The notes below the pieces were generated by a model, which saw only the letters and a program-made list of their open reading frames with translations, had not been told where the DNA came from and did not search any database. A stretch of DNA of 29,235 bases from positions 1 to 29,235 of the forward strand of contig CAYLSY010000001.1 of the NCBI GenBank assembly GCA_964386275.1, read 5' to 3'. A program made the translations under genes and the position numbers. Positions 2,745 to 29,172 of the stretch are shown piece after piece. This stretch comes from an uncultured Hyphomicrobiales bacterium (lineage in GTDB: Bacteria; Bacteroidota; Ignavibacteria; Kapaibacteriales; UBA2268). Position 1 is the stretch's first letter; every line of letters begins with the position of its first letter.

Positions 2745-2745
2745 G

Positions 2746-7140: not shown

Positions 7141-8436
7141 TTAGCGAACAAGTTGGACTTTTACGACAGCTCGAGATTCTTCGATATAATCCACGCTTAT
7201 AGGCTTGGCAATGAAGATTATTTCGTACAAACCCTGCTGCGCAAATTCTGATGCATGAAAAGTAACCTCCCATGGCACGTTATCCTTGTTTCGAGGAATA
7301 AATACATTTTCCAATAGCTTATCAACCAGTTTTCCATTCAAGTCATAGACATTGCAGTTCATAGTAACATCTTCTTCGACTTTATATTTAATCGTTGTTT
7401 CCGAAGAAAACGGGTTCTGGTCTGCAACAGCCTCGATAATAATGGTCGTAGGAATAGTTAAGCAAGCTGTATCAATGGGGATAATCTTGTTTTTCAGGTA
7501 ACTAAAATAGCATAATTCGTAGCAGTATTCATCTCCTCGACTTGATACTCTATCGTAATAATAAGCATAGTTTCTACCGGGGTTACGGGTTCCCAAACCG
7601 ATTAATTCTGAATTCTGCTTATAGTTTGCAATAGTATCCTTGAACTTGACTCGAGCGCCGGAAATATCGCTGAAAGCCTTTTTTCCTCGAACAAGATAAT
7701 AGCCTGCATTGTATGCTTCCTGAATACTTCGCCATTCTATAGCGACTCTTTTATCGCCTACATAATAAGCTGTGAAATCAACCACTTGGTTCAATGGTTC
7801 TTTGGGTGGTTCGACAGTGTATTTGACATAAGTCAAGCTGGAGTCGTCCATTTCGAGATTTTCGTTGGTAAAGGCATAAACAATTTGGTCTCGAATCAAG
7901 CTGTCTTTGCTTAACTTTGCGGCACAAGCCTGAAAGAAGAACCAAGGTTCGCGGAATGCCAGATTAATATCGACTCGCGATTGGTCTTTTGATGCCAAAA
8001 TGAAAGTTCCCAATTTCAATGATGAATCGGTCGGAATAGTTTTACAATTTTCATATAGTTCGGGACCGGAAAAGACAATCATTAAGCGTCCAGGACGAAC
8101 TTGAGGTATAATATGGTAACTCAAGGGGTCTGGCGCATTTCCGGTGATGGTACCGGGCTGCAATTCCGATGTATTGCTTTCGTATGATAAAGAGTATTTA
8201 TCTTTTGTAATGATTTGAGTTGTGTCGGCAAAAACAATTTCGAAAGTGGCGTTGGCAAACCTGTCCCATGCTTCGCTATTGCGTTGAATATGCAAATCGA
8301 ATTGAATGCTGTCAATATTTATATAATTTTGATTTTTAATGGTAACGGTGGCAAGCAGTTCACGAGCATCTCCCTGAGCAGTCAGATTCAGGAAAGAAGC
8401 AAAAAAAAACAATATTACTAACGAGGAATACTTCAT
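7141..8436 (-). CDS. Secreted 431-aa protein: putative cohesin-like/Ig N-terminal domain plus T9SS type-A-like C-terminal sorting domain
   Basis: Signal peptide ends NLTA-Q. IEWRSIQEAYNAGYYLVR resembles the 'W.T..E.NN.GF' Ig module of FCB secreted proteins. C-terminus QNPFSSETTIKY..NVYDLNGKLV..QGLY..KVQLVR resembles the CTD (PNPF..TTI.Y, YD..G, GxY, terminal K/R). The cohesin-like assignment is weak. Confidence 0.7.
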   Translation of the reverse strand: MKYSSLVILFFFASFLNLTAQGDARELLATVTIKNQNYINIDSIQFDLHIQRNSEAWDRFANATFEIVFADTTQIITKDKYSLSYESNTSELQPGTITGNAPDPLSYHIIPQVRPGRLMIVFSGPELYENCKTIPTDSSLKLGTFILASKDQSRVDINLAFREPWFFFQACAAKLSKDSLIRDQIVYAFTNENLEMDDSSLTYVKYTVEPPKEPLNQVVDFTAYYVGDKRVAIEWRSIQEAYNAGYYLVRGKKAFSDISGARVKFKDTIANYKQNSELIGLGTRNPGRNYAYYYDRVSSRGDEYCYELCYFSYLKNKIIPIDTACLTIPTTIIIEAVADQNPFSSETTIKYKVEEDVTMNCNVYDLNGKLVDKLLENVFIPRNKDNVPWEVTFHASEFAQQGLYEIIFIAKPISVDYIEESRAVVKVQLVR

Positions 8437-8448
8437 AATAGGGCGTAA

Positions 8449-10602
8449 TTATTTCTTTTTGGGAACATTAGTTGAGCGACCACGGTTATTCCAAGTATAA
8501 TTCCAATCGCGAGTATTAATATTTCCGGATAAAGTCAAATCGGCATTTAAATAGTCAAAATTATCTGCTGCAGTGTTGTTTGGGTCGCTAATCACATCCC
8601 AGACGCCGATATAATCATCATTGTTAATGATTCCGTCGCCGTTTATATCTCCGGCAATCATTCCGTAAAGAAGGCTGTTGTCTTGGAATTTATGTAATGG
8701 CTTTACTGCTGTCGCTTGTCCGAACAGTATTGCCGGATTGGTAAAATCGACTGAAGTCGGATAGGCGCTTGGATACATATGAATCGGGTCGCCAGTGATA
8801 ACAGCCAAATGGGAACGGTGATGGACAGCTATATAATAATCACCTGAATCAATATTGCCCAATGTCGAGTTTTTCAACCTCAAAGGAGAAACGCCGTCCA
8901 AATCAACGATAGCGCCGTTTTTGCTGAGAAAGCCAATGCGATAGCGGGATTCGCCGCCAAGCATTTGCGTGCGGAACTCAACCAGAATCCAATCTACAAC
9001 GGAATCTGGTATCGAAAGCACTGTATAGCTTGTTCGCTGTGGGTCCATGTTATAAGGATATATATCAGGTGGGGTTAACGGAATCAGGTTCTTTTCCTTT
9101 AAATCGGCTGCCATTGAGCCGTTGCGGTACGGACCTTCCAAATAAGCTCGAGCAGACAACAAAAGCAATCCAGCAGAAGGGAATCCAATTGCAAAATCGC
9201 CATATGGAGTAATTCCCTCGACGTTAGCAAACGCCCAGTCAGTCGAAACATCGAACTGCGGAACGCTTGAATTTGTAAACTCGTTCCATTTATTGTCAAG
9301 GTAGCGCATTAGTTTTAAACTCGATAAATCCAGCCCTTTAACTTCATCCGTCGTCGGTGTGGAAGGAGTATACCGCCAGCCATAACCGAATGTAATTGTA
9401 ACGCCGCTTTGAATCAAACGGTCGTCAGCGTCGCGGGCTTCGAGCGCAAAGTGGCGCATCACTTTGTTTATGCTGCCATCGGGTAACGGCGAGTATTTAT
9501 ATGGTTTTGTTCGGAAAATTAGCGAGCGGGTGCCGTTTTTCGCTGTTTCATCAGGGAAATAGGCATATGTATAAATGTTATTAAATAGCATTTTTTCGCC
9601 GACTTTTAATACATTTCGACGGACAGAACCGTCGATTTCGGCATTGCTTGTTGCAAAAACCGGCTCTTTTTCGCTGTTCAGCGTCAAAATATAGCGCCTT
9701 TCATCAGTAGGTTCAGTCTTGATATAAGAAGACAGGAACAATTCGTTATTGACGAACACATTCGTATCGAGAACCAAGCCGCCGACATTTTCTACCCTTA
9801 AATCGTGTAGCACACTCGTATCGAGCGGTATTTCGGGACCCTGTATCATCTCGCCGTTGCCGGCATAATGCACCGAAACATTCGCCCCGAACTGCGGCGC
9901 CACCTGAATCGAAGCGCCCGAATGTCGCTCAATCAAAACAGAATCCTCCAAAACGATTTTTTCCGGCGCTGCGGCATTGCGAAGCTGCCCACGCGAAAGC
10001 GTCAGCTTCTCTTCGATGGCAAAGCCGCCGCCATGGACATTGACACCGAAAGGATTATCAATGTTCAAACGAGAAAATCGCCCATTGCCGTGCAGGTCTT
10101 GAGCAGCAGTATCATTGTTCATGCGGACATCTTTCGGTCCCTTGTATTTGGCAGTGTTGACTACTGCGCCCTTGGCATGGACATCAGGGGAGTTTATTCC
10201 TATCCAGCCGGTAGTTAATACCGTCGAATCTTCGATTATCAACGAATCGAGAACAACCAAATTTCGAACTTTGTTATTGATATCCTTTTCGTCCCGGATG
10301 ATTTTTGTGGCTTTATTACCAATTACAAGTTGATTATAAATAATGTTCGGAACGGATTGTTGACCGGACAAAGTCGGAGCAAGGAATTCAACCCTGCCGC
10401 CGATTGAATCTGGCATTCCCTTTACTTCACCACGCTTGACTCTAATTACTCCGGTCTTTCCATTAAAAATTTGACCGCTATTATCAAGCACATTTTGAGC
10501 CGCTAAGGTTCCATAAGCAATTGTGAAAGAAAGGAAATAAAGTAATATCCGAAAAATGGGTGAATTTAAAGAAAAATCTATATGTAGGGTTGTAATCTTC
10601 AT
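8449..10602 (-). CDS. Secreted 717-aa protein: beta-solenoid plus connector domain plus C-terminal LEGPY/dockerin-like Ca-binding module
   Basis: Signal peptide ends TLAA-Q. N-terminal part aligns by eye with the 736-aa neighbour. C-terminal ~235 aa has YLEGPY, VVDWILVEFR, GDYYIAVHHRSHL, GDINGDGIINNDD and degenerate ADLTLSGNINTRD. Confidence 0.8.
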   Translation of the reverse strand: MKITTLHIDFSLNSPIFRILLYFLSFTIAYGTLAAQNVLDNSGQIFNGKTGVIRVKRGEVKGMPDSIGGRVEFLAPTLSGQQSVPNIIYNQLVIGNKATKIIRDEKDINNKVRNLVVLDSLIIEDSTVLTTGWIGINSPDVHAKGAVVNTAKYKGPKDVRMNNDTAAQDLHGNGRFSRLNIDNPFGVNVHGGGFAIEEKLTLSRGQLRNAAAPEKIVLEDSVLIERHSGASIQVAPQFGANVSVHYAGNGEMIQGPEIPLDTSVLHDLRVENVGGLVLDTNVFVNNELFLSSYIKTEPTDERRYILTLNSEKEPVFATSNAEIDGSVRRNVLKVGEKMLFNNIYTYAYFPDETAKNGTRSLIFRTKPYKYSPLPDGSINKVMRHFALEARDADDRLIQSGVTITFGYGWRYTPSTPTTDEVKGLDLSSLKLMRYLDNKWNEFTNSSVPQFDVSTDWAFANVEGITPYGDFAIGFPSAGLLLLSARAYLEGPYRNGSMAADLKEKNLIPLTPPDIYPYNMDPQRTSYTVLSIPDSVVDWILVEFRTQMLGGESRYRIGFLSKNGAIVDLDGVSPLRLKNSTLGNIDSGDYYIAVHHRSHLAVITGDPIHMYPSAYPTSVDFTNPAILFGQATAVKPLHKFQDNSLLYGMIAGDINGDGIINNDDYIGVWDVISDPNNTAADNFDYLNADLTLSGNINTRDWNYTWNNRGRSTNVPKKK

Positions 10603-10721
10603 TATATCTGAATGACTAACTTAATGGGATATTGTCAAGTTGATATTAAACTCAAGTTTCAAAATATTTACTTTTAAAAAGATTGAATCAAAACACTACT
10701 CATTTCAGGCTGTCAAACCTT

Positions 10722-10780
10722 TTAAAATTAAATAAATTAACTCGAATCCGGCGGAGCTGTTTTGCAACCGCCGGACGAGT
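10722..10780 (-). terminator. Intrinsic terminator after the 736-aa gene
   Basis: Stem TCCGGCGG (10747-10754) / CCGCCGGA (10768-10775), extended by ACTCG/CGAGT across a 2-nt bulge, followed on the minus strand by TAATTTATTTAATTTT; ~32 nt after the stop. Confidence 0.75.
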
Positions 10781-10812
10781 AATAAATATCATTTAACAAA
10801 GAGCTTCAGCTA

Positions 10813-13023
10813 TTATTGTCCAAGTATCAAGATACCTTCGTTGTTGAATGTACCTGCGTTTTGATAGTTTTGTGTGCCAAACTGAACAAGGTTTGAACCG
10901 GTTATGATGCTTGTAATCCACAAACCGTTCAAATCAGCTTGAGCTGTTGATTTGGGTAATGGAGTTGCGCCAATTGCAGCAACAGAAGCAGCATGGTTAT
11001 CGTTAATCAAAGTAAAGCCTGTTTCTTGCTTTGTCATAAGCACATTGTTACCGTTGTCTTCGTTGCCGATGATAAGAGCAGGATGATGATATCCATCGGT
11101 TTGGTCTGCAGGATTCGGGTCGTTCTGAATGGTAATCATATTAGCAATATAAATTTCTCCGCTTACAGGTGTATAGTGTGTTGCTTCAGGAGTAGTATTG
11201 CCTGATACTGGTGTTTCAAATGCGCCAGACGGAGCTGCAGTGATACCGGCATAAACAACGTGGCGAACGAATGCATTATCGTCTTCGGTCGGAACGGAGC
11301 CTTCATCCCAAGTATTCGGGTTTGTCCAACGACCGGCGGTCTTTGATATAAATTCGATGGGACCGGTGCGGAGCAAAATCTCGTGGCCGCTGGCAAAATT
11401 ACCATTTCCATTAGGAACATTCCCCGTAATTTCGCTTATACCTGACAATTCTGCATAAGCTAAAGTGTCGGCGGCAGCAGGCCCGCCATTAGTATAAGGA
11501 TTACCTGTACCCATTTTCTCAAGAGTACCTGCTTGGTCTTCATACATACGAACTCTTTGCCAAGTATGTAGAGCATCAGCAGGCCACCCATTATCTTCAT
11601 CATCGCGATAACCAACCGTTAAAGTAAGATTATCCGAAAAATCGCCGCCTGCGTTGCTAACATAAGAAAGGACAACTTTTCTTTTGACGTCGGTTGTCGA
11701 ATCAAAGCCAGTAGGAGGAAGGCCCGGTTGAACATTGAATGTCATTGAAGTAGGAACGTTAACGCCATCAGTAAAAGTCGCTTTTGTGTGCATGTTGTTA
11801 AACCGATAGCCCTCGGCGGGTTGACTTGCATATAAAATGTTGCGCTCGAAAGCGCCGACAACTTCTTCGACGTCGCCATAAGTAACAGCGCCGGCTGCGT
11901 TCAACATGTGCAGTGTATTTGTGCCCATCGCCAATGTATTAGCTACAGCTCCTGAGGTAGCAAAATTAAAGTCTTGGCAAATCCAAATATCACCCAATGC
12001 GACAGCGTCGCTGCCAATAAGATTCAAGCTACCGAATGGATTTGTAGTAACGGTAGCAACGATGTTTTGAGAAGCAGTGCCGTTATAAGTTAAAATTGAA
12101 GTACAATCAAAAGTCATGTTGGTAGCGGCGGCAAAAGCATTTGTAAATGCGCCGGTGATGATTAATTCAGCGGGAGTTCCTGTTCCATCACCCAAATGCA
12201 ATGTAGAACCGCCGGCTGCATCAGCTAAAGCAAGAGTGGCTCCGGCGCCGACCGTAACATCGCCCGAACCGTCGGGAATGTCTATATCACCAAGTGTTAC
12301 AGTAACATCGCCATTAAAGTCCGTTGTGCCAGCTCCGGCATGGATACCGGCATTTGCATTATCCAATGTTACAGTCCCGGTAAATGTAGAAGTTGCTGCG
12401 CCGAGTTGCAAATCACCAGTAACAGTAACATTTGCACTTGCTGTAACATTACTGACAACGGTAACTGTTTCTGCGTCGCGGATGGTTTTGACGCCACCGG
12501 AGAGGTCTAAGATGTTGTAATGTGTTCCACCGGTTGCTGTGCTTGTCGGGAAGATGTTTTGCGGATCGGTACCATCATAATAAATTGTTCCTGCATAAGT
12601 AACGTCTCCACCGGAAGTATAAAACGGCCAATTGTTCAAGTTATCATATCCTGTCAAGAAGGTTGCGCACTGAGTCCCAGTTATATGTACTCCGTCGGGA
12701 ACTGCTTTTGCAACTGTGCCAGTAAGTACAAGGTGTTCATAATAAGCGGCTTGAACCGGCTGCGAAGTGCCGCTTGTAGCTGCATATTCAACAGTGCCTT
12801 TAATAGAGTTACCGGCTGTACCCAATGGGGCAGAACCAGTAAATTTGTCGCTGGCGGCAGTGCTGCGGATGCGAATCACAGCGCCGCAAGATGCGTTATA
12901 AACGCCGAGCGAGTCAGTTCCATTGTTGTTGTTATGGAAGTTCTGCGCCAGCGCTTCGCCTGCGGTTAACCCTATAAACAAGAGCGCCACAAGGCATAAG
13001 TGAAGTAAATTGTTTCTTTTCAT
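10813..13023 (-). CDS. Secreted 736-aa beta-solenoid protein, single circularly permuted repeat unit; candidate major filament subunit
   Basis: Signal peptide ends EALA-Q. Contains solenoid rungs (GTIYYDGTDPQNI, ILTYNGTASQNI), a connector (EVVGAFERNI..FNN), a cap motif FISKTAGRWTNPNTW near aa 556, and ends FNNEGILILGQ. SD AAGGA 8 nt upstream; tandem stop TAA-TAG. Confidence 0.8.
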   Translation of the reverse strand: MKRNNLLHLCLVALLFIGLTAGEALAQNFHNNNNGTDSLGVYNASCGAVIRIRSTAASDKFTGSAPLGTAGNSIKGTVEYAATSGTSQPVQAAYYEHLVLTGTVAKAVPDGVHITGTQCATFLTGYDNLNNWPFYTSGGDVTYAGTIYYDGTDPQNIFPTSTATGGTHYNILDLSGGVKTIRDAETVTVVSNVTASANVTVTGDLQLGAATSTFTGTVTLDNANAGIHAGAGTTDFNGDVTVTLGDIDIPDGSGDVTVGAGATLALADAAGGSTLHLGDGTGTPAELIITGAFTNAFAAATNMTFDCTSILTYNGTASQNIVATVTTNPFGSLNLIGSDAVALGDIWICQDFNFATSGAVANTLAMGTNTLHMLNAAGAVTYGDVEEVVGAFERNILYASQPAEGYRFNNMHTKATFTDGVNVPTSMTFNVQPGLPPTGFDSTTDVKRKVVLSYVSNAGGDFSDNLTLTVGYRDDEDNGWPADALHTWQRVRMYEDQAGTLEKMGTGNPYTNGGPAAADTLAYAELSGISEITGNVPNGNGNFASGHEILLRTGPIEFISKTAGRWTNPNTWDEGSVPTEDDNAFVRHVVYAGITAAPSGAFETPVSGNTTPEATHYTPVSGEIYIANMITIQNDPNPADQTDGYHHPALIIGNEDNGNNVLMTKQETGFTLINDNHAASVAAIGATPLPKSTAQADLNGLWITSIITGSNLVQFGTQNYQNAGTFNNEGILILGQ

Positions 13024-13083
13024 TTAATTAATCCTTGAAATAATAAAACATATAATATGATTTTTTGACTTTATTTTACATTT

Positions 13084-13335
13084 TTATTTATTTTCAATAG
13101 TAACTCCATTGAACCAAATTTCGCTTTCGCTCAGGTCTAAATCCTCATTCCAAACAACACTGTGCTTATTAGGATGCGCCATATTGAACTGAGCTGGGTC
13201 TTTCAGCTGCGAAAACAATTCGCTTTCTATTAAATGTCCACAATTGTATGCCTTGCGCTCGCCGTTATCGAATTCGACATGCAAAGTGTAGTCAGGCAGA
13301 GCTTCTACGGATTTTATTGTCGGAATTTGCTTCAT
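13084..13335 (-). CDS. DUF2442-family protein (NE0471 N-terminal-like), orphan
   Basis: IKSVEALPDYTLHVEFDNGERKAYN...LFSQLKDP..F......VVWNEDLDL matches the DUF2442 pattern. ATG at 13335 (alternative GTG at 13338). Confidence 0.85.
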   Translation of the reverse strand: MKQIPTIKSVEALPDYTLHVEFDNGERKAYNCGHLIESELFSQLKDPAQFNMAHPNKHSVVWNEDLDLSESEIWFNGVTIENK

Positions 13336-13379
13336 CACTTATTTTAAAACCTTCATTTAAAGACCTACTATCTTAAAAG

Positions 13380-13410
13380 CAAAACTATTCAAAATATTAC
13401 TACTCAGCAA
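13380..13410 (-). promoter_or_regulatory. Possible internal Bacteroidota-type promoter for DUF2442 and the 736-aa gene
   Basis: Minus strand TTG (13410-13408), 20-nt spacer, then TAGTTTTG (13387-13380), matching TTG-N19-21-TAnnTTTG. AT-rich context. Confidence 0.35.
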
Positions 13411-13497
13411 TACGTATAATTACTGAATGAATTTATTTTAATTTTAGCGCTTGATTTATTTTTGATGAAATACAATAAAACTTAAATTCTATTTTAA

Positions 13498-16400
13498 TTA
13501 TTCACCCAGTTCAATAACTCCGTTATTATTTATTAATGCTGAATTTATGACATTTCCCCGAACCATAAGGGCATCTATTCCGTCAATAAAAACTGTTGCG
13601 CCGAGCGAATTTACAAAATTGCTTCTGACAAGCACTTTGCGTGTAACATTTTTTGTGCCAAAATTTGTTGTATATAATAAACCGTAGCCGTTTCCGGTAT
13701 CGGTTAAGTAGTTATAAAACAAATCAGGTACGATAGAAACATCCTGATTGTCGCCATAGAACTCGAAAATACTGGAAATCCCTATGTCATATACGCTATA
13801 ATTAGTAATGACATCAAACAAAGAGTTATTTGTCCCGCCTATCCTCATGGTTGCCCCATTAGCATTTGTCATGGTCCCGGCGCCGGTAATATTTTTTAAA
13901 GTGTATGACACAGCGTCCAACGTTCCGCTTAGGATACTTAAATTCGAGCTGATGTTAATATTTTTATCAATAATAACGGTATTATTTCCCGGCGCGCCGG
14001 AATTATTGATAATCAAAGAGTTTACTGTAGACGGCAAGCCGTTTCCAATGACTTGGTTAGCTGTTCCATTGTATTCGTAAATACCGTTTGTATTAAATTC
14101 TCTTGAAACGCTTGTTAAAATGTTGCCCGTTGTGCCTCCGAGCGCTGAAATGCCTTGCGTAGAGCCGATTCTGAGTGTCGATAGTTCACCAAAAGAGAAA
14201 TAGAGTCCGTTCAATGTGTTAGCGCCGCAATCAAGAGTGCCGGTATTAGCCGCTTCTGTGCCGAGAGCGACTCCGGCGCCGTCGCCAGCCCCGAACGGCG
14301 CATCGACATTAAGTGTAATAATATGGTTACCAACGCCATTAGCGCCGCCGCCGATAACGACGGAATCTTCCGGTTCGTTGGGCCACAATCCCGAACCGAA
14401 AATTTGGGGTCCAAGGTGGTCTTTTTTGTAAGTCCATGAATTCGGGTCATTCCATAACCCATCGCGCAAGCTGTAGAATATTCGCCTGAAAGCCTGTTCG
14501 CTGCCGGCAGTCCAATCTCCGTGCAGGTCTGAATATAGCGCATCGTCATAAGTTTGAAAATTCGGGCTGCCACCAAAATTGAACGAAAAACCATCTGCTA
14601 CGGTAAAAGTTTTCCATCTGCCGCCGTTAGTTTCTTTGATTGGACGCCAGCGGCCGGCTTTAACGAACTCCGTTCCAATAGTGTCTGTTAAATTGAAATT
14701 AAATGTAAGTTTTCCGTTTAATTTTGACGTCATTGTATCGACAACCCAATAACGTTGCAAATAGGATATTTCCGGTGTGGATGAAATCTTGAAATGCGCT
14801 CCCAAATTAGTCGGATGCGAACCCGGCGAAGTCCTGACTCCCATATACCCGCCGACAGCGCCGCTTTGAGCCAAGAAATCGGCTGGAGCATAGCTTTCGG
14901 TCGCTTCATAGAATGAGCCAACCGGGAAAGTATATGTCTTGGGTAATCCGGTTGCATTCATATTCCTTACCAAATATCCGCTTGTCTGGCTTGTCTTGAT
15001 ATATTTACCAGCGCCATAACCAACTATGCCATTTATATTGTCTGCATTTAGAATATAAATACTTGCGCTATCACCTAAGGTGATAAGGTTGTCGTTTGCA
15101 GTAAAATTCAATTGATTATTAACATAAAGATTAGCGTTGGCAGACGCATTTAAGCGATTAACCATCACATTACCACCGCTGTTCATATTCAGAATCAGAT
15201 TATGGAATGGAATCCCCGAGCTGTTGCCGATATTCACATTTTTCGTTCCGCTGCCGGCAAAGGTGATGTTGCTGGCATTGCCGGGATTAAACGTCGCGGC
15301 TCCCCAAGCAGAAATATTTCTATATAAGTTAATATTTCGATTACCGACACTTAAAACTCCGGAATTGCTTACCAAAGAATCACGTATTTTAAGTGTTTGT
15401 GCGCCGGGAAAATTTGAAATTGCTACAATTTGTATCGGATTATCGGCAATTAATGCCGAGATGCTGTCAGGCAAAGCCCTGCCAGTCGTTTGACCATAAT
15501 TAGGGTTGTTAGCATTAAAGATATATCGGCTGACACCGAACGAACGTATTTCCGTTTGAATACCACCGCCGGGCATTCCAACAGGCACAAGACCGTCGGC
15601 TCGCTGCATACCGAGCGTGCAGCTATCTTGCAGCTCGAATGTATTGCCGTAAATCACGTTCGAAACGCCGGTATTTGTCGTATCGAGAATATATAATTCA
15701 CCCGGCGGCAAATTTGCTGGATTTTCAACAATTACCGCCCTTACTTCAATTTGAGGATTCAAACCCGATGGGATATACACTTTTTTTCCATTGCCGATAT
15801 AGACTTTATCTGTCGTTACGAGCAATCCATTGTTAAAACCCGGATAACGGTTTGCCGGAGGAGTATTTTCAATTAAATAATCTGTTAAAGACCATGTATT
15901 AACGTCGTTCCAATATCCGTCGCGATAACTATAAAAACTTTGTCCTTCGGGTTCGGCAAGCAGAAAATCGCCGAAATGTTTGTTTCCAACTGATTTTACC
16001 GTAGAATCAGTTCTTGTTGTTGTATTGGTTATATACCATGCGGCTGGTATGGTATCCCAACCCGGCGTTCGGCGGAATTGCTCTAAGAATGGTAGCGTTA
16101 TATTTAATCCGATTGTGTCTCTCGGCAAAGTGTACTCTAAGGTTAAAGCAAACGAACGTGTCAAGGAATCCAAGACGAATCCGCCTTTATGGTTGATATT
16201 CCAATATCTTTGAATATTATTGTCGATTCTGCCCAAAGGATACAAATTGGTTATATCAGGATGCTGAACGTTATACGAGATTGCCCCGACAAGTCCGGCG
16301 GTGCCGCCGGTACCAGTAGTTTGGAAAATTACTGGACGGTAGCCGTATTCCAAAGTATCGTTACCAATCGGAAATAGCTTTGTAACCTGCCCTGTTTCTA

Positions 16401-19400
16401 TCCATCGATAAAGCCTGCCGTTAATATGTCCGGGACCATTTATAACAATTTCTGCGGCGCTTCCGCCGGAGGGACTGACTTCAACATATTTATTAAATGT
16501 TCTGGAATCGATTAAAGATTTATTTCCTAATGCAAATTCAAGATTATTGCGTACCACAATATTAGAATTGTCCGAAGCATCCAATCCGAGTTGAACCAAA
16601 CCGCTGTCGGGCTTGGCAATCTTCAAATTGTAAAACTCCAATGCTGCGCCAGTCGAATTGAACAGAGTTTGAGTATTACCCGAGCCGAAAAGTTCCAAAG
16701 TGCCTGCGCTCGAAGCAGATAATGTTCCATAGTTAATTAAATCGCCGCCTAAGGCAAGATTCCCTTGTATCTGCATTGTATGATTCACATCAATATAAGC
16801 GTCATTCAGTATTGTATCGAGGCTAATAAAGTGCGTTTGAGCAGCATTTCCGGGCGCGTTCGAAGCATGGAATCCGAAAATAGGCATCGTGCCTTTTAGT
16901 TTTATTGGAACGGCTCCTGCAGCAATGCTCGAATCGCCAGATTGAATAATGCCGCCGCGCATTTTCACTCCCGCAGCAGCATCGACATAATAATCCAAAC
17001 TCGCCTCGGCAGAGCCTTTGGCAACAATAATCCTGCCCCCGTCCATATTGAAAGTCGAACCGGCATTGCGAATGTCGAAGCCGATTCTATCGGCGCGGGT
17101 ATTGCCGATTCGCATAACCCGGGCAATACCGAATGTATCGATAGTAATATTAACTAAGGCTCCATCGGTCAAACGGGTAAAGCAGCCGGCTATATCTATA
17201 CTGCCGGAGAGTATATCAAATTTGCTGCCATCGGAATAAAAGAGACATTCATCCGCATTATTACCAACGATTAGGCTGCCACCATTTAAATAGGTTGTTG
17301 TGTTATAGCTTGCAACGATGTTAGTATCCGAACGCAAAGCGCCAGAGCGAATATCAAAACCGGAGCCGCTTATTATTGTCAAATTAGTATTGCCTTTTGC
17401 AATACACATCGTATCGGCAACCGTGTGACGAAATACGCCGCCGTTGGGATAGAACATGAAATTGGAAACAGTATCCGTTGCCAACGAAAATGTAGAGGAG
17501 GCGTTAATCAATGTATCGGTTAATCCGGTTTTCGTTAAAAAGACCTTAGGCAGTCTCCCCCACTTTCCGTTACCGGAAATTGTCGAGACACTGTCGCCGC
17601 CAAACTTGAGCGCAGTAAAGTTTGTGGCTGATTTATATAGGTTGATACCGTGTCCGGTCGATAGATTGATCAAATCCTGAGAAATTTTAAGAGTATCGTA
17701 ACGGTTTGCAATAGAAGAAGTATCGCCGATATAACCATTGTCTGCGTCGAGGAACAATGTGCGCATTTCGAGCGTTTTTATTGAAGGAGTATCACCAAAT
17801 AGCAGTCTGCCTGCGCCTGCTGCTGGGTTTGTGCCGCCGATTCGCAGCGAATCTATGCTGACATGTGCCGAATCCTTGAATACAATAATATGACCATCGA
17901 TGTTCACAGTATCGTTATTAAACAACATGCCGGGGTAATACGATGCGGCAGTGCCGGAATGCTTCAGTACCGCATCATTCGACCAATTGTATCGATTGTT
18001 CCAAACACCCGACTTAATGCTGTAAAACACGCGACCGTTGAAATAAACCAATGGATGCCCCGCCGTCCAATCGCCGTCGAGCCCAGGTTCTTGAACTACC
18101 GTAATCGGAGACGGCAGCGCAACAGGATTAGTACCCAAATTGATTTCCCAGCCGCCGGGAGTTTTGTGCCGACCGGGAATATACCAGTTGACATCGCCGT
18201 TGATGTCATAAACGCTGTAGCCGAATGTATATGTCGCCGGAAGCGTAGTATCTACAGTTATTCCAGTAGAGCTAACCCGCCAGTATTTGCTTAAAATGTT
18301 TTCGGTTAAGCGCGCAGGATGCTTTTCGGCTTTCAAAAGCAGCTTGATTGCTGCATTGCCGCTGTTTGTGCCTCGAAAATTAAATGATGCCGGATTATAA
18401 ATTGAATCTACTCCGACGGGAAAAGTAAAATTAAATGTTGTGCCTGAAAACTGCTTGGTTATTGTATCATTAAGTGAAATACCATCGACTTGGAACATTC
18501 TTTTACTGCTGAAAGAACCTGCATCAGGCGAAACGCTGCCCGTAGCGTTGAAAGTAAGGGTATTATTCGGATTCAAATATAAATTATTATCGGTGCTGAA
18601 CTTGAATACATTACCGACGGTAATATTATTCTCAAGATACACTTTTTCTGTCGTGGTCGGCTTGTTTATGGTGATTTTATTGAATGTTATGGGCTGAGAG
18701 CCGCGAATTGTGTCGCGCGAATCGCCCTTGAACAAGACTTCGCTGGTTTGGGCGTTGAAGCCGCCGATTGTATCATTGATAAAATCGCCCTTTATACCGA
18801 TTGTATAAGCGCCTGCATTCAAAATGCCGCTGATAATTTTCAACGAATCGGCACAAGTAACGTTTTTCGACAAAGTAACCTGTGGATTGACCGCGCCAGA
18901 GCGTGGCGATTGCACTATGAATGCGCCTACGTTTGCTGGCAAACCGTCGCCGGTGGTTTGTGCCGGCAGTGTATAGTTCGGATTAAAAATACGAATTGAA
19001 TAATCTTCAACTTCGCCGTAAGCAGGATTATCACATACATCTGAACCAGCAGAACTAGTGCTGCGGTACATTTTTACGCGCATTCTTGTCGTTCCGGGCA
19101 TATTACCTGAAGGTACTGTAAATGATCGAGACACAGCGCTTGACGAGGCTGTAGTTGCTGAAAATAATTGTTCGCCCGCATCGGTAAAATCACCATTCAT
19201 ATTGTAGTCTATCCAAGCTATCCAACGTTGATTTCTTGTGGTGCCGAAACCCGGCGTCATTGTTAATGTATAGCTTGAACCTGCATTTAAATTTGCCTGC
19301 TGGGATACATAGTATTCATAAGCCTGCGGGCTGACGCTAGCTCCTGAAGTATTGTCTATGCTGTGGTTTGCGTCAATGCCGGGCAGTTGAATGCGGGAAA

Positions 19401-22400: not shown

Positions 22401-25400
22401 CTTCGAGGTTAAAACCATTTGATTCGAACGAAGCGTTATTGTTAATTGTCAAATCGTTCAAAATTATGACGGGAGTCGTTCCCGAACCAAGCAAACGCTT
22501 GGTTCCAGCGCTATCCAGCTTCAAATTAAAATATGACAGATTGAATACAGTATCAGCAGGAGCAAGCGGACGACAAGGAATGTCTTGGGTGGAACCGTTT
22601 TTATTGAAAACAACAGTCGAACCGTTTGTTTGGAAGCGCTGGCTGACGGGACCGGTAAATGTCAAATCTGATATATCCAAACTATTGCCGATACGTATTT
22701 CGCCTTGCGATTGAAGCGTTACAACACCAGAGACCGAACCGCTAATTTTCAAGTCGTAATAACGATTAACTGCAGGGGTAAGCGCAGAACTGGGTATAAG
22801 CGGATTGGCAATTCCGTGGAATGTTACCCTTCCGGCATTAAAAGTAGGTGCAGCATAATTCGCCGGAAAGCCGGTTCGCAGCAAAAGTTCACCGCCGGTC
22901 ATTTTAAGCGTTCGATTAGAGCTGCCGCCATCCATTGAGTAGCTGCCGACATCAAGGCAGCCTTGATTAATGACAATCGAATCATTGATTATGATAGCCT
23001 TGCTTAACTTTACGGTGTCAGTAAGCGCTCCGCCTTGAATTTTCACTACATTCACCGGCGATGGCAAGGCGTCTCCGGTTGTTTGAAGCGCCGCAGTCGA
23101 ATCGATAAACCGATAAGTCCCTCGTTGAGTAAAGCTACGCACAATCGTTTGAACAGCGCCGCTGTCCTGCTTTGTCGTTGCAAGCACGATTCCTTGCGGA
23201 TGGGCAATATCAAGTTCGCCGCCGTCATTGGCTAAAATAGTTGAACCTACTCTGAGAGTATCGCCGTGCATAAAGTTGCTGCCGAGGATACGAAGCCTGC
23301 CGGTTTTTGTAACGGTATTGACGACGCCTTTATCGACTATTACTGCATTGAAAGGCGCTGTGGCAGCCGAAACCGTAACGGTGTCACGAATGAAAACACG
23401 GTCGCTGCGTTTATTAGGCGCAGTGTTCGACGGATTGCCCGTGTATTCGAAACCGAGTTTAGACCACGTCGATGGATCGTTGTAGTCGCCGTTTTTTATG
23501 CTGTAATAATATGCTCTGCCTATGTTTTCTTCGCCAGCTACCCAATCACCGTTTAAAGAATCAGCCATTTGGGAATAAAAAAATCGAGCGCCCCAATTGA
23601 CTATATTGTTTGTCCTGCCGGGACCGACCTGCCAATATCCCAAAGGGTCGGGATATGATGGATGGAAATTCCAAACAAGATAATCAGCATCGGAGCCACG
23701 CACTTCTGTTTCGTGATAATAAAAAAACGCATCTAAAGAACGTATGGGTTTGAAAGTTAAATTCTCAGTCTTCATAACCCAATATTTTGTCAAAGAAGTA
23801 TTATTGGTTTCAACTGCAGGATGCTCCATAGGAATAGCCTTACATGAAACTGAAGCGTTCGGATAATACATAACGCTGTCCGGATGAAAATATACTGTTG
23901 ATGGCGTAAATACTTTGATAATGGCGGTATCTGAACCGGTTATTTGTCTTCCATAAGTTCCTATAGGGAAAAACAGATTTATAGGCGGTATCGGAGGAGT
24001 TATGTCTGGAGTAATCAATTTTTTAATTCTGCCGCAATCGGCAGTCCAACTCGGATTGAAAATCATCTTTTTGTTGTTAAAAGAAGTATCTGTTGTGGCA
24101 GCAGTAGAATAAATATCTCCGTTTGTGCCTATTGTCAAAGAATCAAGGTTAATATTAAATAATGTATTTGATACAAGACGCAAATTGCCGTTTACCGTAA
24201 CCGATGTGTCGAGAACGACTTGGTTTGTTGTATCGGAGCCGGCAATTTGTTTATTAATAGTCAAATTATTAAATGCGGTAGTAACAGCGCCTTGAATTCG
24301 TTGCTCAGGCAGTCCATTCATTGTAACGGTAGCAGCTCCGGCAGTGAAAGCCAACAAATCCGTTGTTGAGTTATTTATCCAATTGCCTCCGAGCGTAATA
24401 TTTCTATTGTTAGCGTCAAATCTGCCAGCGCCTGTTCCAGCTATTGTAATATTGCTTACAACGCTTAAATCATTGTTTATAATCCGAGCGATAGGGCTGT
24501 TCGTGCCAGTCATCAGCAAATTTCCGATTGCATGAGTTGTATTCAATCGATAAGTTTCAGCGTTATTACGGGCGTCGATTTTTACCGTACCGCCGGTTAC
24601 GTTCGAAGCTCCTGCAACTGAGTAGAACTCACCGTTTGCAAATGCGGAGGCTTGGCTCTTCAATACAATTTCGCCTGCTGAAGTATAAAAGGATGAGCCA
24701 GCCGAACCTAAATCGAACAAAGCGCGAGTTGCGCTTGTGTTTTGCGAGCCGTAACCAAGATTGATTGTTCCGCCGCTTTGAGTAAAACGCAGCGAATCGC
24801 TGTCGCTAGCATTACGCGAAAGGCGCGCATTAACGTTTAGCGTACCGCCTTCGACGGTTAATTGCGCCGCCGAAGAACCCGATTCATATAGTAAATTATT
24901 TTCGTTTGCGCCTGCACCAATGTTGATTGTTCCGTTCGTTAATCGAAGCAAGCCCTGAAGAAGCAAACTGGCATTTTGACCGGTGAAAATCACGTTTTCG
25001 TTATCGAGCCACAGCCCGGAATTGCTGTTTATTGTGTAATTTAATATCGAAAAGAAATTGTTTGTGAATGAAAATGTGCCGCCGATATGAAAAATACCCC
25101 TCTCAAGCGATAAAAACGGATTATTTGCCGAAAAAGCCGTCGAAAGCACATCCAATCTGTCATTTGCTGATGTTTTATTTAAAATAATATCGTAAAATTC
25201 GGTTGTCGTTCCAGTTCCGGAAATTTGTGCATTGCCGCTACCAATAAAAGAAACAGTCCCTTGAAGCGAAAATTGGTCACCATTATTAGTCCAGTTGCCG
25301 ATTATCGTAACATCGCCGTTTATATGGAAAATGCCGTTGTTCGTTAGCGAGCCGTTAATTTTAACTATTGCATCAGGACGTATTGAAACAACCGCATTAG

Positions 25401-25491: not shown

Positions 25492-25506
25492 TAAATTATA
25501 TCGTCA

Positions 25507-28500
25507 TTAACTTAGTTTGTGTATTGAGACGTATGTTTTAGCTTTACCTGTAACAAGACTCTGAACAGAAGTCCATAAATGAAATACTCTTACTTCCAAC
25601 CATTCACCTGCATTTAAATAAATAATATCTGAAATAACCGGAGCATTATTTGTAGGAATCAATGGGGTTTGTGAAGAACCTGATTCATTTAAAGCAAGGT
25701 TATTTCCATATGAGTAATAAGTTTCTGTATTATCAGAATTAGAATATATTGCTATAGAACAAAACCTATTCGCTGATGCAGTACCTGAGCCACTTAAATT
25801 AAATTCAACTCTTGAATTAACTTGGTAATATCCCGCTTGCTTTGCAGTAAACCTACTAGTAGTAATATCGAACTCTTCCTGTTCATCGAAATTCTCAACA
25901 TTAAAATTCACTTTAGTCCATGTATTTATAGGTATTGATTGTTCTGTATTTAAATACGCCCTTACTCTGCTTTGATGTTTCAAATCCACAATACCTTCAC
26001 TGCCTTCTTCGGCATGAATAATAACTTGCTCTTCGCCTTTTATTTTGAATACAAGCGGATTTGTGTTAGTCGGCTCCGATGAACCCAAAAAGTCGCTTTC
26101 AGTGATTTCATTCCCTCCGAGCAACCACGCTGAACCGCCGCCGCCGCTGTTCGCTTCTGTAGTGATTGTTTCCCAGTCGTCGTTTCCACGTATTTTCATT
26201 CTTCTTTCAGTCGAGCTGTAGTAAATCATACCGGGAACCGGGTCGGCAGGTTCATTCTCCAAGGGTACCATAAAGATAGCAATTGGGTCTATTGTTCCGG
26301 TAACAATCAAATCGCCGTTGATGCGTACATCACCGAGCATTTCTACGTTAATAGAATCGTCATCAAAAGTTGTAACTCCAAGTCCAACCCTGCCCTCGAC
26401 AAATAAGCCGTCATCAGGCGCGGTTACAGAGCCTGCATAACCCGAACCAATAACAACCCCGCCGGCAACATCAAGCAAGTTCACAGGAGATGTTTCTCCG
26501 ATTCCTATATTAGTTCCATCATTTATCAATAAATCTGACGCCACCCAGCCTGTGCCGTCATGTCTTAAAGTTTGCTCTTCTGCGCCGCTCGGTAAAGCAA
26601 CGTCAACCCAGCTTAGAAAGCCGGACAAGCCAGATGTGGAAAGCACTTGGCCGGAATCGCCTTGAGTAATTGGCAATGTATATGTATATGTATCAGCCAT
26701 GCTTGGGTCTGATAAAAACGATACACCACCAGTTGCATTTTCATTATATACCGATAGATTACCTAATACCATAAAGGAATTTGAAGCATTCTCCCAAATC
26801 AGATTCGGACTGCCAGTAATTTGGTGGTTCGAAGACCAAAATGTAACTTGATTCATTACCGGTGCGCCGCTTGTGTCCGCTTTTTCATTAAATAAATTCC
26901 AGTCATCGCTCGAAAGATAACCTGCGCTTGCGTTTCCAGCTTGCGCCACTTCTATAGTAACGCCTGTTCCGATTACTGAACCTTCGCCGCCGGTTATTGT
27001 AAGAACACTCGAATTGGTTTCTTCCAAATTGCCAGTAGTTAATGCATCAAGTTTATTATTAAAAGTGTTCCAGTCATCGCTCGAAAGCGCTCCCGTTGTG
27101 GTTGCAGAAGCCAAACCAAGTGATAATTCCTGAACATCAAGGCTCAATCCGTTAGCTGTTCCAAGTGTAACGGCAGGATGAGATTCCAATTCCAGAGCAT
27201 CTACTGAGCCTTGCAATTTTCCAAAGGCATCTAAAATATTATCAGTAGCCGTAATATCGCCAGTTGATGTAATAAAACCGGTTAAAATTTTGCCTATTAC
27301 TGCGCTATTGCTCAAAGTAACAACTCCTGCATTCGAAATTGTCGCTTCGCCGCTCATCGAAACCGAAGCGGCTAAATTAGATGCGTCGCCAACCAAAATA
27401 TTTCCGCTGTTCAACGCAGAACCAACAGGCGACACTCCAGTAATAGTCGTATTTCCAGCCGCTGTCAAGCGTCCCTGCTCATCGACGGTAAAAGTCGCCA
27501 CTTCCGTTGCGCTGCCATAGCTGCCGGCAGAAACAGCGGTATTGGCAAGATTCAATGTAGCCGAAAAACCGTCGCCTAAGGCATCTGCGGCTATGCCGCC
27601 GCTTAAACCTGTCCCGGCAGTTATTGTCGCTGTCTGATTGCCTTCAACAGCAGAGCCTGAGGATGTTCCGTAAGCCACATCCCAAGTCGTTGCTGCAGAA
27701 CCGTCATAGTTTGAGCCGGTTAGCCCTGTGCCTCGAGTTAAAAGCGCATGTGTATGGTCGCTACGTGAGGCTGTATTTGCCGCGCCGCTCCCGGCGAAAT
27801 CGACATCAATAGTCAAATTGCCGTCGTCGGACCCTGCATCAGTAAAACTAATGCCGTTTCCTTCGACTAAAACTCGATTGTTTGATAGATTAGCAGCAGT
27901 TGAAAAAGTAATGAGCGGCGATGAAGATATATTCGAAGCGTTTTGGTCAACATAATCTTTCGTTGTCAAAGTAGTCGGTCCGTCGCCTACGCCTGTCGAA
28001 GCGCTTGTAGCCTTGTTTATTATATTTAGCGAGGAAAAAGTCGGCGAAGAAGTTGCGGCAATATCTTGCGGAGTTGATAGCGTGATTGAACCTGCGGCGT
28101 TAGCCACATTAACCTGATTTGCAGTACCAGTCAGTGTCGCTAATGTATAATTAGTACCATTGCCAATTAATAATTGACCATTCGTGGGAGTAGTCGATAA
28201 ATTTGTGCCGCCGTTAGCAACAGGCAGAACTCCGCTGACTTCCGCCGTAGCCAAATCAACTGCATCGCTAGCGCTGCCGGAACCGACAAAGCGATTAGCT
28301 TGGATGTAGCCAGCACCGGTCGGTGCTAATGAACCTTGAACCAATAAGTTTGCAGTATTTGTGCCATCAGTAATTTGGCTAAATGGCACAGTAACATTCG
28401 TTAGTGAATTTGTCCATGATAATACACCGGAGCCATTGTTCATCAAAAGCGAGTTTGCGGCTCCTTGAGCGATTGGCAGCGTCCAGTCGATGTATGCTGA

Positions 28501-29172
28501 TTGAGCGCCGGCAGAAATATTGGTAGTAAATGTTCCTGCCGGGTTTTGAAATTGCAGTTGCCGAGCAATTCCGGCATTGCTTAATATAGATAAATTACCG
28601 CTAATTGAAGAATTACCCGTAACCGATGCACCTCCGGCGATAACGTTCAATCCACCTGCTGTTACGCTGACACCGCCGGAAGTTACGCTGACACCGCCAG
28701 CCGCTACTGTAAGCTTATTTGCAAGGTTGAGTCCGCCGTTAGGAAGAAAGTCAGTCCCAGCATCGCCAATATTAAAAACAAGGTGATTAGCCATATCAAT
28801 ATTACCGGTCATTGTTCCGCCAGATAAAGGCAGGAACAAACCATCGTCGCTTGCCGCAATTTTAAACCACGAGCCACCGATTCGAAAGTAGAAACCGGCT
28901 GTGTAGCTGCCTGATGCATCTGTTTGATACACGAGCAGCCCTTCAGCAGGCGAAACGATTGCAATGCGTTGGGCATAGGTCATTCTTGGGGCAAGAAATC
29001 CCATTGTTGTCGACTCAAGATGTAAAATTGCTGATTGGTCAGGGGTTAATGTGCCTATTCCAACATTGTCGGTCTGGGAAATCATAGGCAGAGCCGATAG
29101 AATGAATAACAGGCTAACCCATATTTCTAAATTAAATTTTTTTCTATTTATTATTGAGTTGGCTACTGTCAT
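25507..29172 (-). CDS. Secreted ~1220-aa trimeric tail-fibre-like adhesin with C-terminal C1q-like head
   Basis: ATG at 29172 with GGAG 6 nt upstream is preferred over TTG 29184. Signal peptide ends PMIS-Q. N-terminus NVGIGT..P..SAILHLEST..GFLAPRMT..QR.AI.SPAEGLLVYQTD is followed by many fibre-type motifs and a C-terminal jelly-roll motif set. Confidence 0.85.
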   Translation of the reverse strand: MTVANSIINRKKFNLEIWVSLLFILSALPMISQTDNVGIGTLTPDQSAILHLESTTMGFLAPRMTYAQRIAIVSPAEGLLVYQTDASGSYTAGFYFRIGGSWFKIAASDDGLFLPLSGGTMTGNIDMANHLVFNIGDAGTDFLPNGGLNLANKLTVAAGGVSVTSGGVSVTAGGLNVIAGGASVTGNSSISGNLSILSNAGIARQLQFQNPAGTFTTNISAGAQSAYIDWTLPIAQGAANSLLMNNGSGVLSWTNSLTNVTVPFSQITDGTNTANLLVQGSLAPTGAGYIQANRFVGSGSASDAVDLATAEVSGVLPVANGGTNLSTTPTNGQLLIGNGTNYTLATLTGTANQVNVANAAGSITLSTPQDIAATSSPTFSSLNIINKATSASTGVGDGPTTLTTKDYVDQNASNISSSPLITFSTAANLSNNRVLVEGNGISFTDAGSDDGNLTIDVDFAGSGAANTASRSDHTHALLTRGTGLTGSNYDGSAATTWDVAYGTSSGSAVEGNQTATITAGTGLSGGIAADALGDGFSATLNLANTAVSAGSYGSATEVATFTVDEQGRLTAAGNTTITGVSPVGSALNSGNILVGDASNLAASVSMSGEATISNAGVVTLSNSAVIGKILTGFITSTGDITATDNILDAFGKLQGSVDALELESHPAVTLGTANGLSLDVQELSLGLASATTTGALSSDDWNTFNNKLDALTTGNLEETNSSVLTITGGEGSVIGTGVTIEVAQAGNASAGYLSSDDWNLFNEKADTSGAPVMNQVTFWSSNHQITGSPNLIWENASNSFMVLGNLSVYNENATGGVSFLSDPSMADTYTYTLPITQGDSGQVLSTSGLSGFLSWVDVALPSGAEEQTLRHDGTGWVASDLLINDGTNIGIGETSPVNLLDVAGGVVIGSGYAGSVTAPDDGLFVEGRVGLGVTTFDDDSINVEMLGDVRINGDLIVTGTIDPIAIFMVPLENEPADPVPGMIYYSSTERRMKIRGNDDWETITTEANSGGGGSAWLLGGNEITESDFLGSSEPTNTNPLVFKIKGEEQVIIHAEEGSEGIVDLKHQSRVRAYLNTEQSIPINTWTKVNFNVENFDEQEEFDITTSRFTAKQAGYYQVNSRVEFNLSGSGTASANRFCSIAIYSNSDNTETYYSYGNNLALNESGSSQTPLIPTNNAPVISDIIYLNAGEWLEVRVFHLWTSVQSLVTGKAKTYVSIHKLS
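25510..25980 (-). other. C1q/TNF-like globular head domain of the fibre protein
   Basis: SRVRAY...SIP.NTWTKVNF.VENFD.Q.EFD.TTSRFTAKQAGYYQV...V is typical of gC1q/BclA-like domains. Confidence 0.8.
26897..27087. repeat. Exact 20-bp direct repeat TTCCAGTCATCGCTCGAAAG (26897-26916, 27068-27087) encoding LSSDDWN twice
   Basis: Read directly; copies are 171 bp (57 codons) apart, in frame. Confidence 0.9.
28661..28698. repeat. 21-bp-period tandem repeat (GTTACGCTGACACCGCC x2) encoding GGVSVT heptads
   Basis: Exact 17-mers at 28661-28677 and 28682-28698. The protein reads AAGGVSVTSGGVSVTAGGLNVIAGGASVT. Confidence 0.9.

Follow-up and report, generated by a model that had tools for sequence, protein, structure and literature searches.

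A candidate segmented surface fibre of separately encoded beta-helix proteins in the Kapabacteria

The window analysed here is a stretch of 29,235 nucleotides (nt) that makes up the whole of contig CAYLSY010000001.1 (C1) of GenBank assembly GCA_964386275.1, an 86%-complete genome of 2.57 Mb in 409 contigs from an uncultured member of the Kapabacteria (Bacteroidota). On its minus strand lie five co-oriented genes with products of 1221, 3997, 736, 717 and 431 amino acids (aa), which we refer to as the fibre protein, the giant head protein, the link, the base and the anchor. On balance, we consider it probable that the product of this locus is a cell-surface fibre of finite length, in which separate secreted beta-helix proteins form successive segments and are linked end to end by non-covalent contacts. 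In the proposed chain, the variable fibre protein would be followed by the head protein, the 736-aa link, the 717-aa base and the 431-aa anchor. At the joint, the strictly C-terminal last rung of one protein (N-x-G-x-I-x-N-x-G-x-I-E-V-G-x) would pack on the first residues of the next mature protein, an Asn/Gly-rich acceptor segment that follows the signal-peptide cleavage site and would be disordered alone, and docking would yield one continuous solenoid resembling the covalent repeats of the giant. At the foot of the chain, the X-module-dockerin-like end of the base would be held by a cohesin-like domain of the anchor, whose type IX secretion system (T9SS) C-terminal domain (CTD) would direct export and outer-membrane attachment. 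We infer a cell-surface location and an adhesive function for the assembly.

The open reading frames (ORFs) and their leaders confirmed the starting point of an earlier note on this DNA, which had been written from the sequence alone and had described five co-oriented genes with signal peptides. The gaps between the genes are, in order, 15, 474, 210 and 12 nt, and all five products start with a basic, hydrophobic leader that ends in A/G/S-Q and carries no lipobox Cys. Scans with Pfam and NCBIfam recognised almost no curated family in the five proteins, and catalytic families had zero matches in any of them.

The joint between the 736- and 717-aa proteins

The C-terminus of the 736-type proteins is strongly conserved. 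Among the complete representatives of the family, 107 of 115 could be aligned on the motif N-x-G-x-[IV]-x-N-x-G-x-[IL]-E-[VI]-G, with its key residues N, G, N, G, E and G each kept in 65-99 of the 107 and exactly one residue after the motif in 86 of them. Every giant, every 736-type protein and every one of the small head proteins (which take the giant's place in some relatives) that we examined ends in this common motif, and only two of the genome's 2099 ORFs with a length of 150 aa or more do so, those of the giant and the 736-aa protein. On the other side of the presumed joint, the mature 736- and 717-type proteins start, right at the A-Q cleavage site, with a conserved segment rich in Asn and Gly, which follows the pattern Q-N-L-x-N-x-x-G-x-I-x-N-x-G-x-I, and the first ~100 aa of the two families are related to each other (independent E-value (iE) 1e-6). 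The rarity of the C-terminal motif and the homology of the N-termini bear out the view of the earlier note that the ends of these proteins are complementary.

In AlphaFold2 (AF2) models, both proteins form a right-handed beta-helix followed by a beta-sandwich, with a predicted local distance difference test score (pLDDT) of 81.9 and a predicted template-modelling score (pTM) of 0.80 for the 736-aa protein and a pLDDT of 85.5 for the 717-aa protein. The monomer models are least confident at the conserved N-terminal segment, where the pLDDT falls below 50 at residues 33-49 of the 717-aa and residues 32-43 of the 736-aa protein. For complex prediction, residues 385-736 of the 736-aa protein were combined with residues 35-478 of the 717-aa protein in three runs, alongside three controls. 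The interface score ipSAE was 0.85, 0.84 and 0.86 versus 0.00 in all three controls, and the predicted interface consists of residues 718-736 of the 736-aa protein (with a few neighbours) and residues 36-58 and 60 of the 717-aa protein. Pairing these two ends was a check put forward in the earlier note, and it returned a confident interface.

Natural fusions join the same ends within one chain. Among 150 listed of the 226 representatives of the 736-aa family, six proteins of 1451-1581 aa (P0103, P0123, P0139, P0151, P0152 and P0169, each representing a cluster at 50% identity) consist of a 736-type part followed by a 717-type part. Five of them (1451-1509 aa) have a clean junction, in which the 736-type motif is followed by 2-3 residues and then by the mature 717-type N-terminal segment without a signal peptide; in P0169 (1581 aa), a longer stretch separates the two parts and the clean junction is absent. 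A 1549-aa fusion ORF with the same type of junction is present in the reference genome G031 (L044:6660-11309:-), and two metagenomic contigs have a 431-type gene that comes after the fusion gene and overlaps it. Fusions in this order would be expected if the two ends were contiguous in the assembled structure. End-to-end docking of the 736-aa onto the 717-aa protein, as predicted, is therefore supported by three independent lines, namely conserved termini, complex prediction and natural fusions.

The direct evidence from prediction and fusions is limited to this joint, which would also suit an arrangement without a continuous fibre, where association is restricted to the 736- and 717-aa proteins, the two parts of a split single-chain adhesin, and where the giant, the 431-aa protein and the fibre protein are co-regulated but act independently as surface or secreted proteins. 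The occurrence of the fibre N-terminal domain in unlinked paralogues (C166 and C245) and the dispersed cluster in G031 point the same way. We regard this arrangement as unlikely, since the giants and small heads, always encoded just upstream, keep the exact C-terminal motif of the 736-aa protein, and the N-terminus of the 736-aa protein is homologous to the docking N-terminus of the 717-aa protein. Moreover, about half of the loci have 717 and 431 genes that abut or overlap, and such an overlap, between the 431-type and the fused gene, is also seen on both of the metagenomic contigs examined.

Shared modules, the giant head and the fibre protein

Comparison of the five proteins with one another by BLASTP and phmmer gave marginal matches only, so profiles were needed to confirm the modules that they share. 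Since a word-indexed search with the 736-aa profile was saturated by low-complexity words and returned 5 proteins, we used an exhaustive profile search instead, which gave the 226 cluster representatives at E<=1e-30. In hhalign, the 736-aa family matches the 717-aa family (98.8%, E 7e-17) over residues 269-535 and 209-470, respectively, a region that covers the solenoid end and the beta-sandwich connector, and six units of the giant match the 736-aa family (90.4%, E 1.4e-6). No match was obtained when the giant units were aligned with the 717-aa family by hhalign, and the kinship of the three runs via the 736-aa family as intermediate. The 736-aa protein contains one connector and one repeat motif, and the 717-aa protein the connector alone. 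The modules that the earlier note had seen in common among the 3997-, 736- and 717-aa proteins are thus confirmed by family profiles. Among solved structures, the 736-aa model is closest to EtpA (Z 12.7), with TibA, HMW1, Ag43 and tapirin also matched (Z 11-12.7); the best matches of the 736- and 717-aa models also include the tailspike CBA120 TSP2, and folds of tailspikes, pectate/alginate lyases and a chitinase are matched at Z 9-11.

Hybrids of ~790-910 aa have a 736-type N-terminal part, through the connector, joined straight to an X-dockerin-like domain (L029:1620-4004:- in G033; P0159 and P0168). For two tandem proteins of 670-814 aa in a sister family (G113:C4:239157-243709; G217:C4:243276-247299), the match to the 736-type profile ends at the repeat motif, and these may belong to a related system outside the order.

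The giant consists of an N-terminal solenoid, six units (each with a solenoid, a beta-sandwich connector and an F-Y-S..G.W..W-S motif) and a terminal solenoid of 326 aa. Each of its six connector motifs is followed ~90 residues later by the F-Y-S..G.W....W-S motif, and the C-terminal docking motif recurs within the protein 93-247 aa after four of these repeat motifs. The giant therefore contains covalent equivalents of the proposed joint. In many genomes, orthologues of 3800-4850 aa with 6-7 units occupy the same position directly upstream of the 736-717-431 gene trio. In the giant-less relatives G018, G028, G033 and G035, this position is filled by signal-peptide proteins of 127-142 aa that have a giant-like N-terminus and keep the identical C-terminal docking motif (L034:106-531:-, L035:385-819:-, L036:406-828:- and L038:635-1114:-). 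A profile of these four small heads matched the giants best at the extreme C-terminus (iE 4e-7 to 1e-3) and at the N-terminus (iE 1.5e-4 to 0.05), and heads of ~1100 aa that match the last 600 residues of the giant were found in G014, G015, G027, G031 and G037. Judging from this length series, the giant looks like a small head protein expanded through inserted units, and the span from 130 to ~4800 aa fits a structural, length-setting role.

The same motifs and the gene position suggest that the C-terminus of the giant docks on the N-terminus of the 736-aa protein in an equivalent manner. The earlier note had proposed that the subunits stack end to end through open solenoid edges; this is supported for the step from the 736-aa to the 717-aa protein, by termini, prediction and fusions, whereas the step from the giant to the 736-aa protein is based on motif homology. 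The same note had placed n copies of the 736-aa protein between the giant and a 717-aa terminator, which would make the structure an open-ended, pilus-like filament with the 736-aa protein as an abundant head-to-tail polymer. The 736-aa protein indeed bears docking N- and C-termini of the same general type, and its gene is flanked by intergenic regions of its own (474 and 210 nt), with a hairpin rich in G+C past the stop codon. Nevertheless, this part of the proposal is not supported; we consider it improbable, and it may at most apply to lineages without the fusion. The five cleanly joined cluster representatives and the G031 ORF, six fusions in all, tie the 736-type C-terminus to a 717-type part in cis and leave no free end, so one copy per chain suffices in these lineages. 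The 736-type gene is single-copy in every genome searched, with no tandem or duplicate copies seen. In giant-bearing genomes, the 736 N-terminus (Q-N-F-x-N-N-T-G-G-T-Y type) is unlike the 717 N-terminus. Co-variation of Cys residues between the N- and C-termini of the 736-aa family, which would have hinted at contacts within a homopolymer, was absent as well (9/17 vs 38/98). A finite fibre, with the 736-aa protein as a single link, agrees better with these observations.

The fibre protein begins with a signal peptide and a conserved N-terminal domain, followed by repeated fibre modules and a variable head. The public record of the exact protein carries a precomputed match to PF26696 (PTL_trimer). 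In relatives, fibre homologues of 500-1300 aa are encoded immediately upstream of the giant or small head gene, often overlapping it, and differ in their C-terminal heads. Synteny and this tight gene coupling suggest that a C1q-headed fibre may be attached to the giant. The head in the window matches Pfam C1q (PF00386) weakly (E 0.08; 13.6 bits, below the cut-off of 23.7), its Atlas feature matches fall in C1q-bearing clusters (score 0.93), and it is 49% identical to the head of the homologue in G007. The G+C fraction is 0.39 at 24001-26000, where the fibre head and the beginning of the giant are encoded, versus 0.47 at 26001-29000, over the fibre shaft; the low value over the head and the differing heads among relatives fit head swapping. 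The N-terminal domain of the fibre protein recurs at 48% identity in two unlinked ORFs of the same genome (487 and 339 aa; C166:3476-3733:- and C245:1773-2027:+), and G033 has a 3571-aa protein built of fibre-type repeats (L034:518-11233:-).

Because the look-alikes found for the fibre head in the Atlas are C1q-type proteins of phages, and in view of a weak PDB sequence match to a tail collar fibre and the tailspike folds at Z 9-11, we also considered a remnant or domesticated phage tail-fibre or tailspike module. Such an origin is very hard to reconcile with Sec signal peptides on all five proteins, zero PHROG matches, housekeeping flanks, conservation across the order and a T9SS CTD on one of the proteins, and we give it hardly any credence. 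The prophage reading was rejected on the signal peptides, the housekeeping context and the order-wide conservation.

The base, the anchor and the organisation of the locus

The C-terminal ~240 aa of the 717-aa protein, which the earlier note had called dockerin-like, are supported as such at the level of fold. Model residues 479-716 align with the type II X-dockerin chains 4u3s_B, 4wi0_B and 2b59_B at Z 8.0-8.1 over 143-145 of 156 residues, and Foldseek assigns the X-module and dockerin fold with a probability of 0.97. The consensus of the homologues contains two motifs resembling Ca-binding loops, D-x-N-G-D-G-x-I-D and D-x-N-L-x-G-I-I-T-T-R-D. Pfam Dockerin_1 (PF00404) matches 2 of 41 homologues (best E 7e-4) and leaves the 717-aa protein of the window unmatched; one homologue is named dockerin type I repeat protein by NCBI. 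Searched against PDB sequences, neither the 717 nor the 431 profile produced a useful match. The same domain also terminates many giant ORFs of 1400-6200 aa in relatives, and it ends M4 and C1 peptidases, a subtilase, an alpha-amylase and GDSL lipases of Bacteroidota (homologues P0265-P0287). Given this distribution, it behaves as a general C-terminal attachment module, and it looks like a widespread surface-attachment module that is unmatched in the Pfam copy searched.

The presence of this domain on proteases, amylases and lipases of other Bacteroidota raises the possibility of a cellulosome-like, T9SS-anchored enzyme complex, in which the beta-helices would be polysaccharide lyases or hydrolases displayed by a dockerin-cohesin pair. 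The pectate/alginate lyase, tailspike depolymerase and chitinase folds matched at Z 9-11 are compatible with this, as is the source of the DNA, since the locus occurs in anaerobic digester metagenomes. However, the best-matching folds are the adhesins EtpA, TibA, HMW1 and Ag43 and the tapirins, the catalytic families of Pfam and NCBIfam match none of the five proteins, and the head length series and terminal docking motifs point to a structural, length-setting role. An enzyme complex therefore seems to us a poor prospect.

A 431-type gene adjoins a 717-type gene in 20 of 20 loci examined, abutting or overlapping in about half, and the stop codon of the one often overlaps the start codon of the other. 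For the N-terminal beta domain of the anchor, 84 of 100 named Atlas feature matches lie in cohesin-bearing sets (0.84), and the structure reaches TM 0.57 to cohesin/dockerin clusters; Pfam Cohesin (PF00963) matched 0 of 21 anchor homologues. The C-terminus resembles a T9SS CTD at the look-alike level. Its hidden Markov model (HMM) matches lie below cut-off, with 14.5 bits for PF18962 (cut-off 27) and 14.7 for TIGR04183 (cut-off 23) at E 0.02-0.04, and a T9SS CTD is matched in 8 of 21 anchor homologues at E<0.05. The Atlas look-alikes are 99% Por_Secre_tail proteins (score 0.95). T9SS machinery is present in the genome, where SprA_N (2306-aa ORF, C50) and PorV (C12) both score above cut-off. 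The other four proteins gave zero CTD matches at E<=0.1 in Pfam and NCBIfam, which accords with the earlier statement that only the last gene has a T9SS-like CTD; they end instead in the docking motif (giant and 736-aa protein), the X-dockerin-like domain (717-aa protein) or the C1q-like head (fibre protein). Taken together, pairing of the dockerin-like end of the base with the cohesin-like domain of the anchor is a moderately supported candidate for the base-to-anchor link.

Synteny of the homologues, which had been set beforehand as a test able to refute the proposal, came out strongly positive. Of 41 genomes from the same family and order, ~30 carry the 736-717-431 genes side by side, with gene order and orientation preserved, and four complete genomes are without all three genes. 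In many relatives, the giant and then the fibre gene lie directly upstream of the trio. When 300 genomes from the phylum and 200 from the class were searched, full-length members of the 717 and 736 families turned up in the order Candidatus Kapabacteria alone, with a few partial relatives in sister families.

Table 1. Positions of the genes and of the main features of their products in the window
Feature	Position (nt)	Strand	Layout or evidence
431-aa anchor protein	7141..8436	-	ORF; start 12 nt past stop of 717-aa gene
T9SS type A C-terminal sorting domain of anchor, residues 341-431	7144..7416	-	sub-threshold HMM, Atlas
N-terminal beta domain of anchor, residues 22-215	7792..8373	-	cohesin-like, lead only
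717-aa base protein	8449..10602	-	signal peptide, beta-helix (41-343), beta-sandwich (~300-477), X-module-dockerin-like end
X-module and dockerin-like domain of 717-aa protein, residues 479-717	8452..9168	-	structure alignment
717-aa mature N-terminal docking segment, residues 36-60	10423..10497	-	complex interface, fusions
736-aa link protein	10813..13023	-	signal peptide, beta-helix, beta-sandwich connector, G-R-W..P.T-W motif, short beta-helix
736-aa C-terminal docking rung, residues 718-736	10816..10872	-	complex interface, conserved logo
736-aa mature N-terminal segment, residues ~27-60	12844..12945	-	conserved, homologous to 717 N-terminus; presumed acceptor of giant C-terminus
Giant head protein, 3997 aa	13498..25491	-	ORF, motif positions, unit alignment
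Giant C-terminal docking motif, last 14 residues (N-x-G-x-I-E-L-G-E)	13501..13542	-	shared terminal motif
GEVED domain in unit 3 of giant, residues 2090-2166	18994..19224	-	Pfam PF20009, E 2e-19
Fibre protein, 1221 aa from ATG	25507..29172	-	ORF; upstream TTG at 29184 possible
C1q/TNF-like head of fibre protein, P0001 residues ~1052-1225	25510..26031	-	weak Pfam, Atlas

The flanks of the cluster are ordinary (Table 1 lists the features of the cluster itself). On the plus strand, positions 425-7138 hold xseA and a resistance-nodulation-division (RND) efflux operon (membrane fusion protein, AcrB-like pump and TolC-like channel), convergent with the cluster. On a longer public contig with the same genes, the fibre gene is directly preceded, on its own strand, by genes for a GerE-type response regulator and a 541-aa PD40/OmpA protein (L031:7206-9519). 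Since these two genes and then housekeeping genes lie upstream of the fibre gene, the cluster begins at the fibre gene. Within the cluster, just past the tandem stops of the 736-aa gene, there is a minus-strand hairpin at 10750-10776 with a stem of 7 bp, all G+C (CCGGCGG...CCGCCGG), and an A/T-rich run comes after it. A role as terminator or attenuator within the cluster is possible; a simple scan did not include it in its output.

Several points weigh against a continuous, surface-anchored fibre. The support for it is wholly computational, and no RNA run containing DNA of the locus was found. The complex prediction was calibrated on 80 solved complexes, of which 58 reach the mark, versus 2 of 110 mismatched pairs, a calibration that holds only roughly here given the alignments of our own that were used. 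Its controls were unrelated proteins rather than other beta-helix ends, so a generic stickiness of solenoid edges is possible. A profile of the 736 C-terminal end concatenated with the 717 N-terminal end aligned with the giant units through the short repeat motif alone; the idea that the joint is one giant unit split in two therefore rests on motif positions, unit sizes and fusions. At the base, the dockerin loops are modelled with low confidence, residues 676-703 in the region of the second loop being below pLDDT 50, and the cohesin identity of the anchor N-terminal domain is a lead only. The greatest difficulty is that four of the five proteins have neither a T9SS CTD nor a lipobox, and we know of no route by which such proteins cross the Bacteroidota outer membrane. 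In G020, the trio and the pair of fibre and giant genes point in divergent directions, and in G031 the fusion gene stands alone, with the 431-type gene on another contig (L045:3376-4782:-).

Relation to known systems and implications

To see where such an assembly would belong, we compared it with known systems. The long tail fibre of phage T4 (gp34-gp35-gp36-gp37) is trimeric, virion-borne and chaperone-dependent. It shares with the proposed assembly a finite length, several elongated proteins joined non-covalently end to end, genes in assembly order and a variable distal tip, whereas the parts encoded here are single-chain beta-helices with signal peptides, on a bacterial chromosome and with a T9SS-sorted anchor. 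EtpA, HMW1 and HxuA (TpsA proteins), Ag43 and TibA (autotransporters) and the SprB-type adhesins are single polypeptides that each have their own export signal, which is a two-partner secretion (TPS) domain with TpsB, a beta-barrel or a T9SS CTD. Long right-handed beta-helix shafts, giant size and a likely adhesive role are common to these adhesins and the locus; in contrast, the shaft here is split among genes and the shaft proteins lack such export signals. Pfam and NCBIfam found no TPS domain or C-terminal beta-barrel in the five proteins, and the neighbouring genes encode RND efflux, XseA, the response regulator and the OmpA/PD40 protein. The distinction from single-chain SprB-type adhesins, already drawn in the earlier note, is thus upheld by the division of the shaft.

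The same note had set the locus apart from type V pili, and the absence of a lipobox Cys and the beta-helix fold agree with that. Type V pilins (FimA/Mfa1) are lipoprotein precursors that are proteolytically activated and polymerise by strand exchange between pilin-fold domains. The resemblance lies in a Bacteroidota filament of separately encoded subunits joined through their termini, with tip, shaft and anchor in one operon, but the proteins described here have a beta-helix and a beta-sandwich instead of the pilin fold, and their assembly is probably finite. With the cellulosomal type II cohesin/X-module-dockerin pair (PDB 2b59, 4u3s), the locus shares the fold of the C-terminal ~240 aa of the 717-aa protein and, as a lead, a neighbour with a cohesin-like domain and an envelope anchoring signal. 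Unlike in cellulosomes, the anchor would be a T9SS CTD in a diderm rather than an S-layer homology (SLH) domain or a sortase signal, and the cargo would be a beta-helix fibre, not enzymes. Bactofilins are small cytoplasmic right-handed beta-helix proteins that form non-polar homopolymeric filaments through terminal-rung contacts (bioRxiv 10.1101/617639; PMC4372379). As in the joint proposed here, their terminal rungs associate into a continuous solenoid, but the locus encodes distinct secreted proteins with a polar joint, from C-terminal rung to N-terminal segment, and bactofilin (DUF583) had zero Pfam matches in the five proteins.

The locus meets the defining features of none of these systems, that is, T4 fibre, bactofilin, cellulosome, type V pilus or single-chain adhesin. 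Literature on Kapabacteria T9SS, T9SS dockerin/cohesin, beta-helix head-to-tail filaments and PTL_trimer contained no description of such a system. The assembly is most likely a new combination of known kinds, undescribed for the bacterial cell surface. We put forward more tentatively, with rather less confidence than in the fibre itself, that it could represent a new appendage class, namely a T9SS-tethered beta-helical fibre of programmable length, whose CTD-less segments share a portable solenoid joint and become surface-bound only as an assembly, and whose head is lengthened from 130 to 4800 aa by insertion of units.

If this reading is correct, bacteria would have a way of making long surface fibres out of beta-helix proteins that come from separate genes and complete each other's solenoid. 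To our knowledge, the only precedents for solenoid-completing joints were cytoplasmic bactofilins and, in a loose sense, phage tail fibres. For the T9SS, the assembly would raise the question of whether a CTD-bearing anchor carries the CTD-less proteins along to the Bacteroidota surface or whether they take another route. The joint itself is short, sequence-defined and accompanied by natural fusions, and it might serve as a connector in protein engineering. The locus also marks three large protein families and a widespread X-dockerin-like domain, all unmatched in the Pfam copy searched, and it would provide the first candidate surface structure for the little-studied Kapabacteria.

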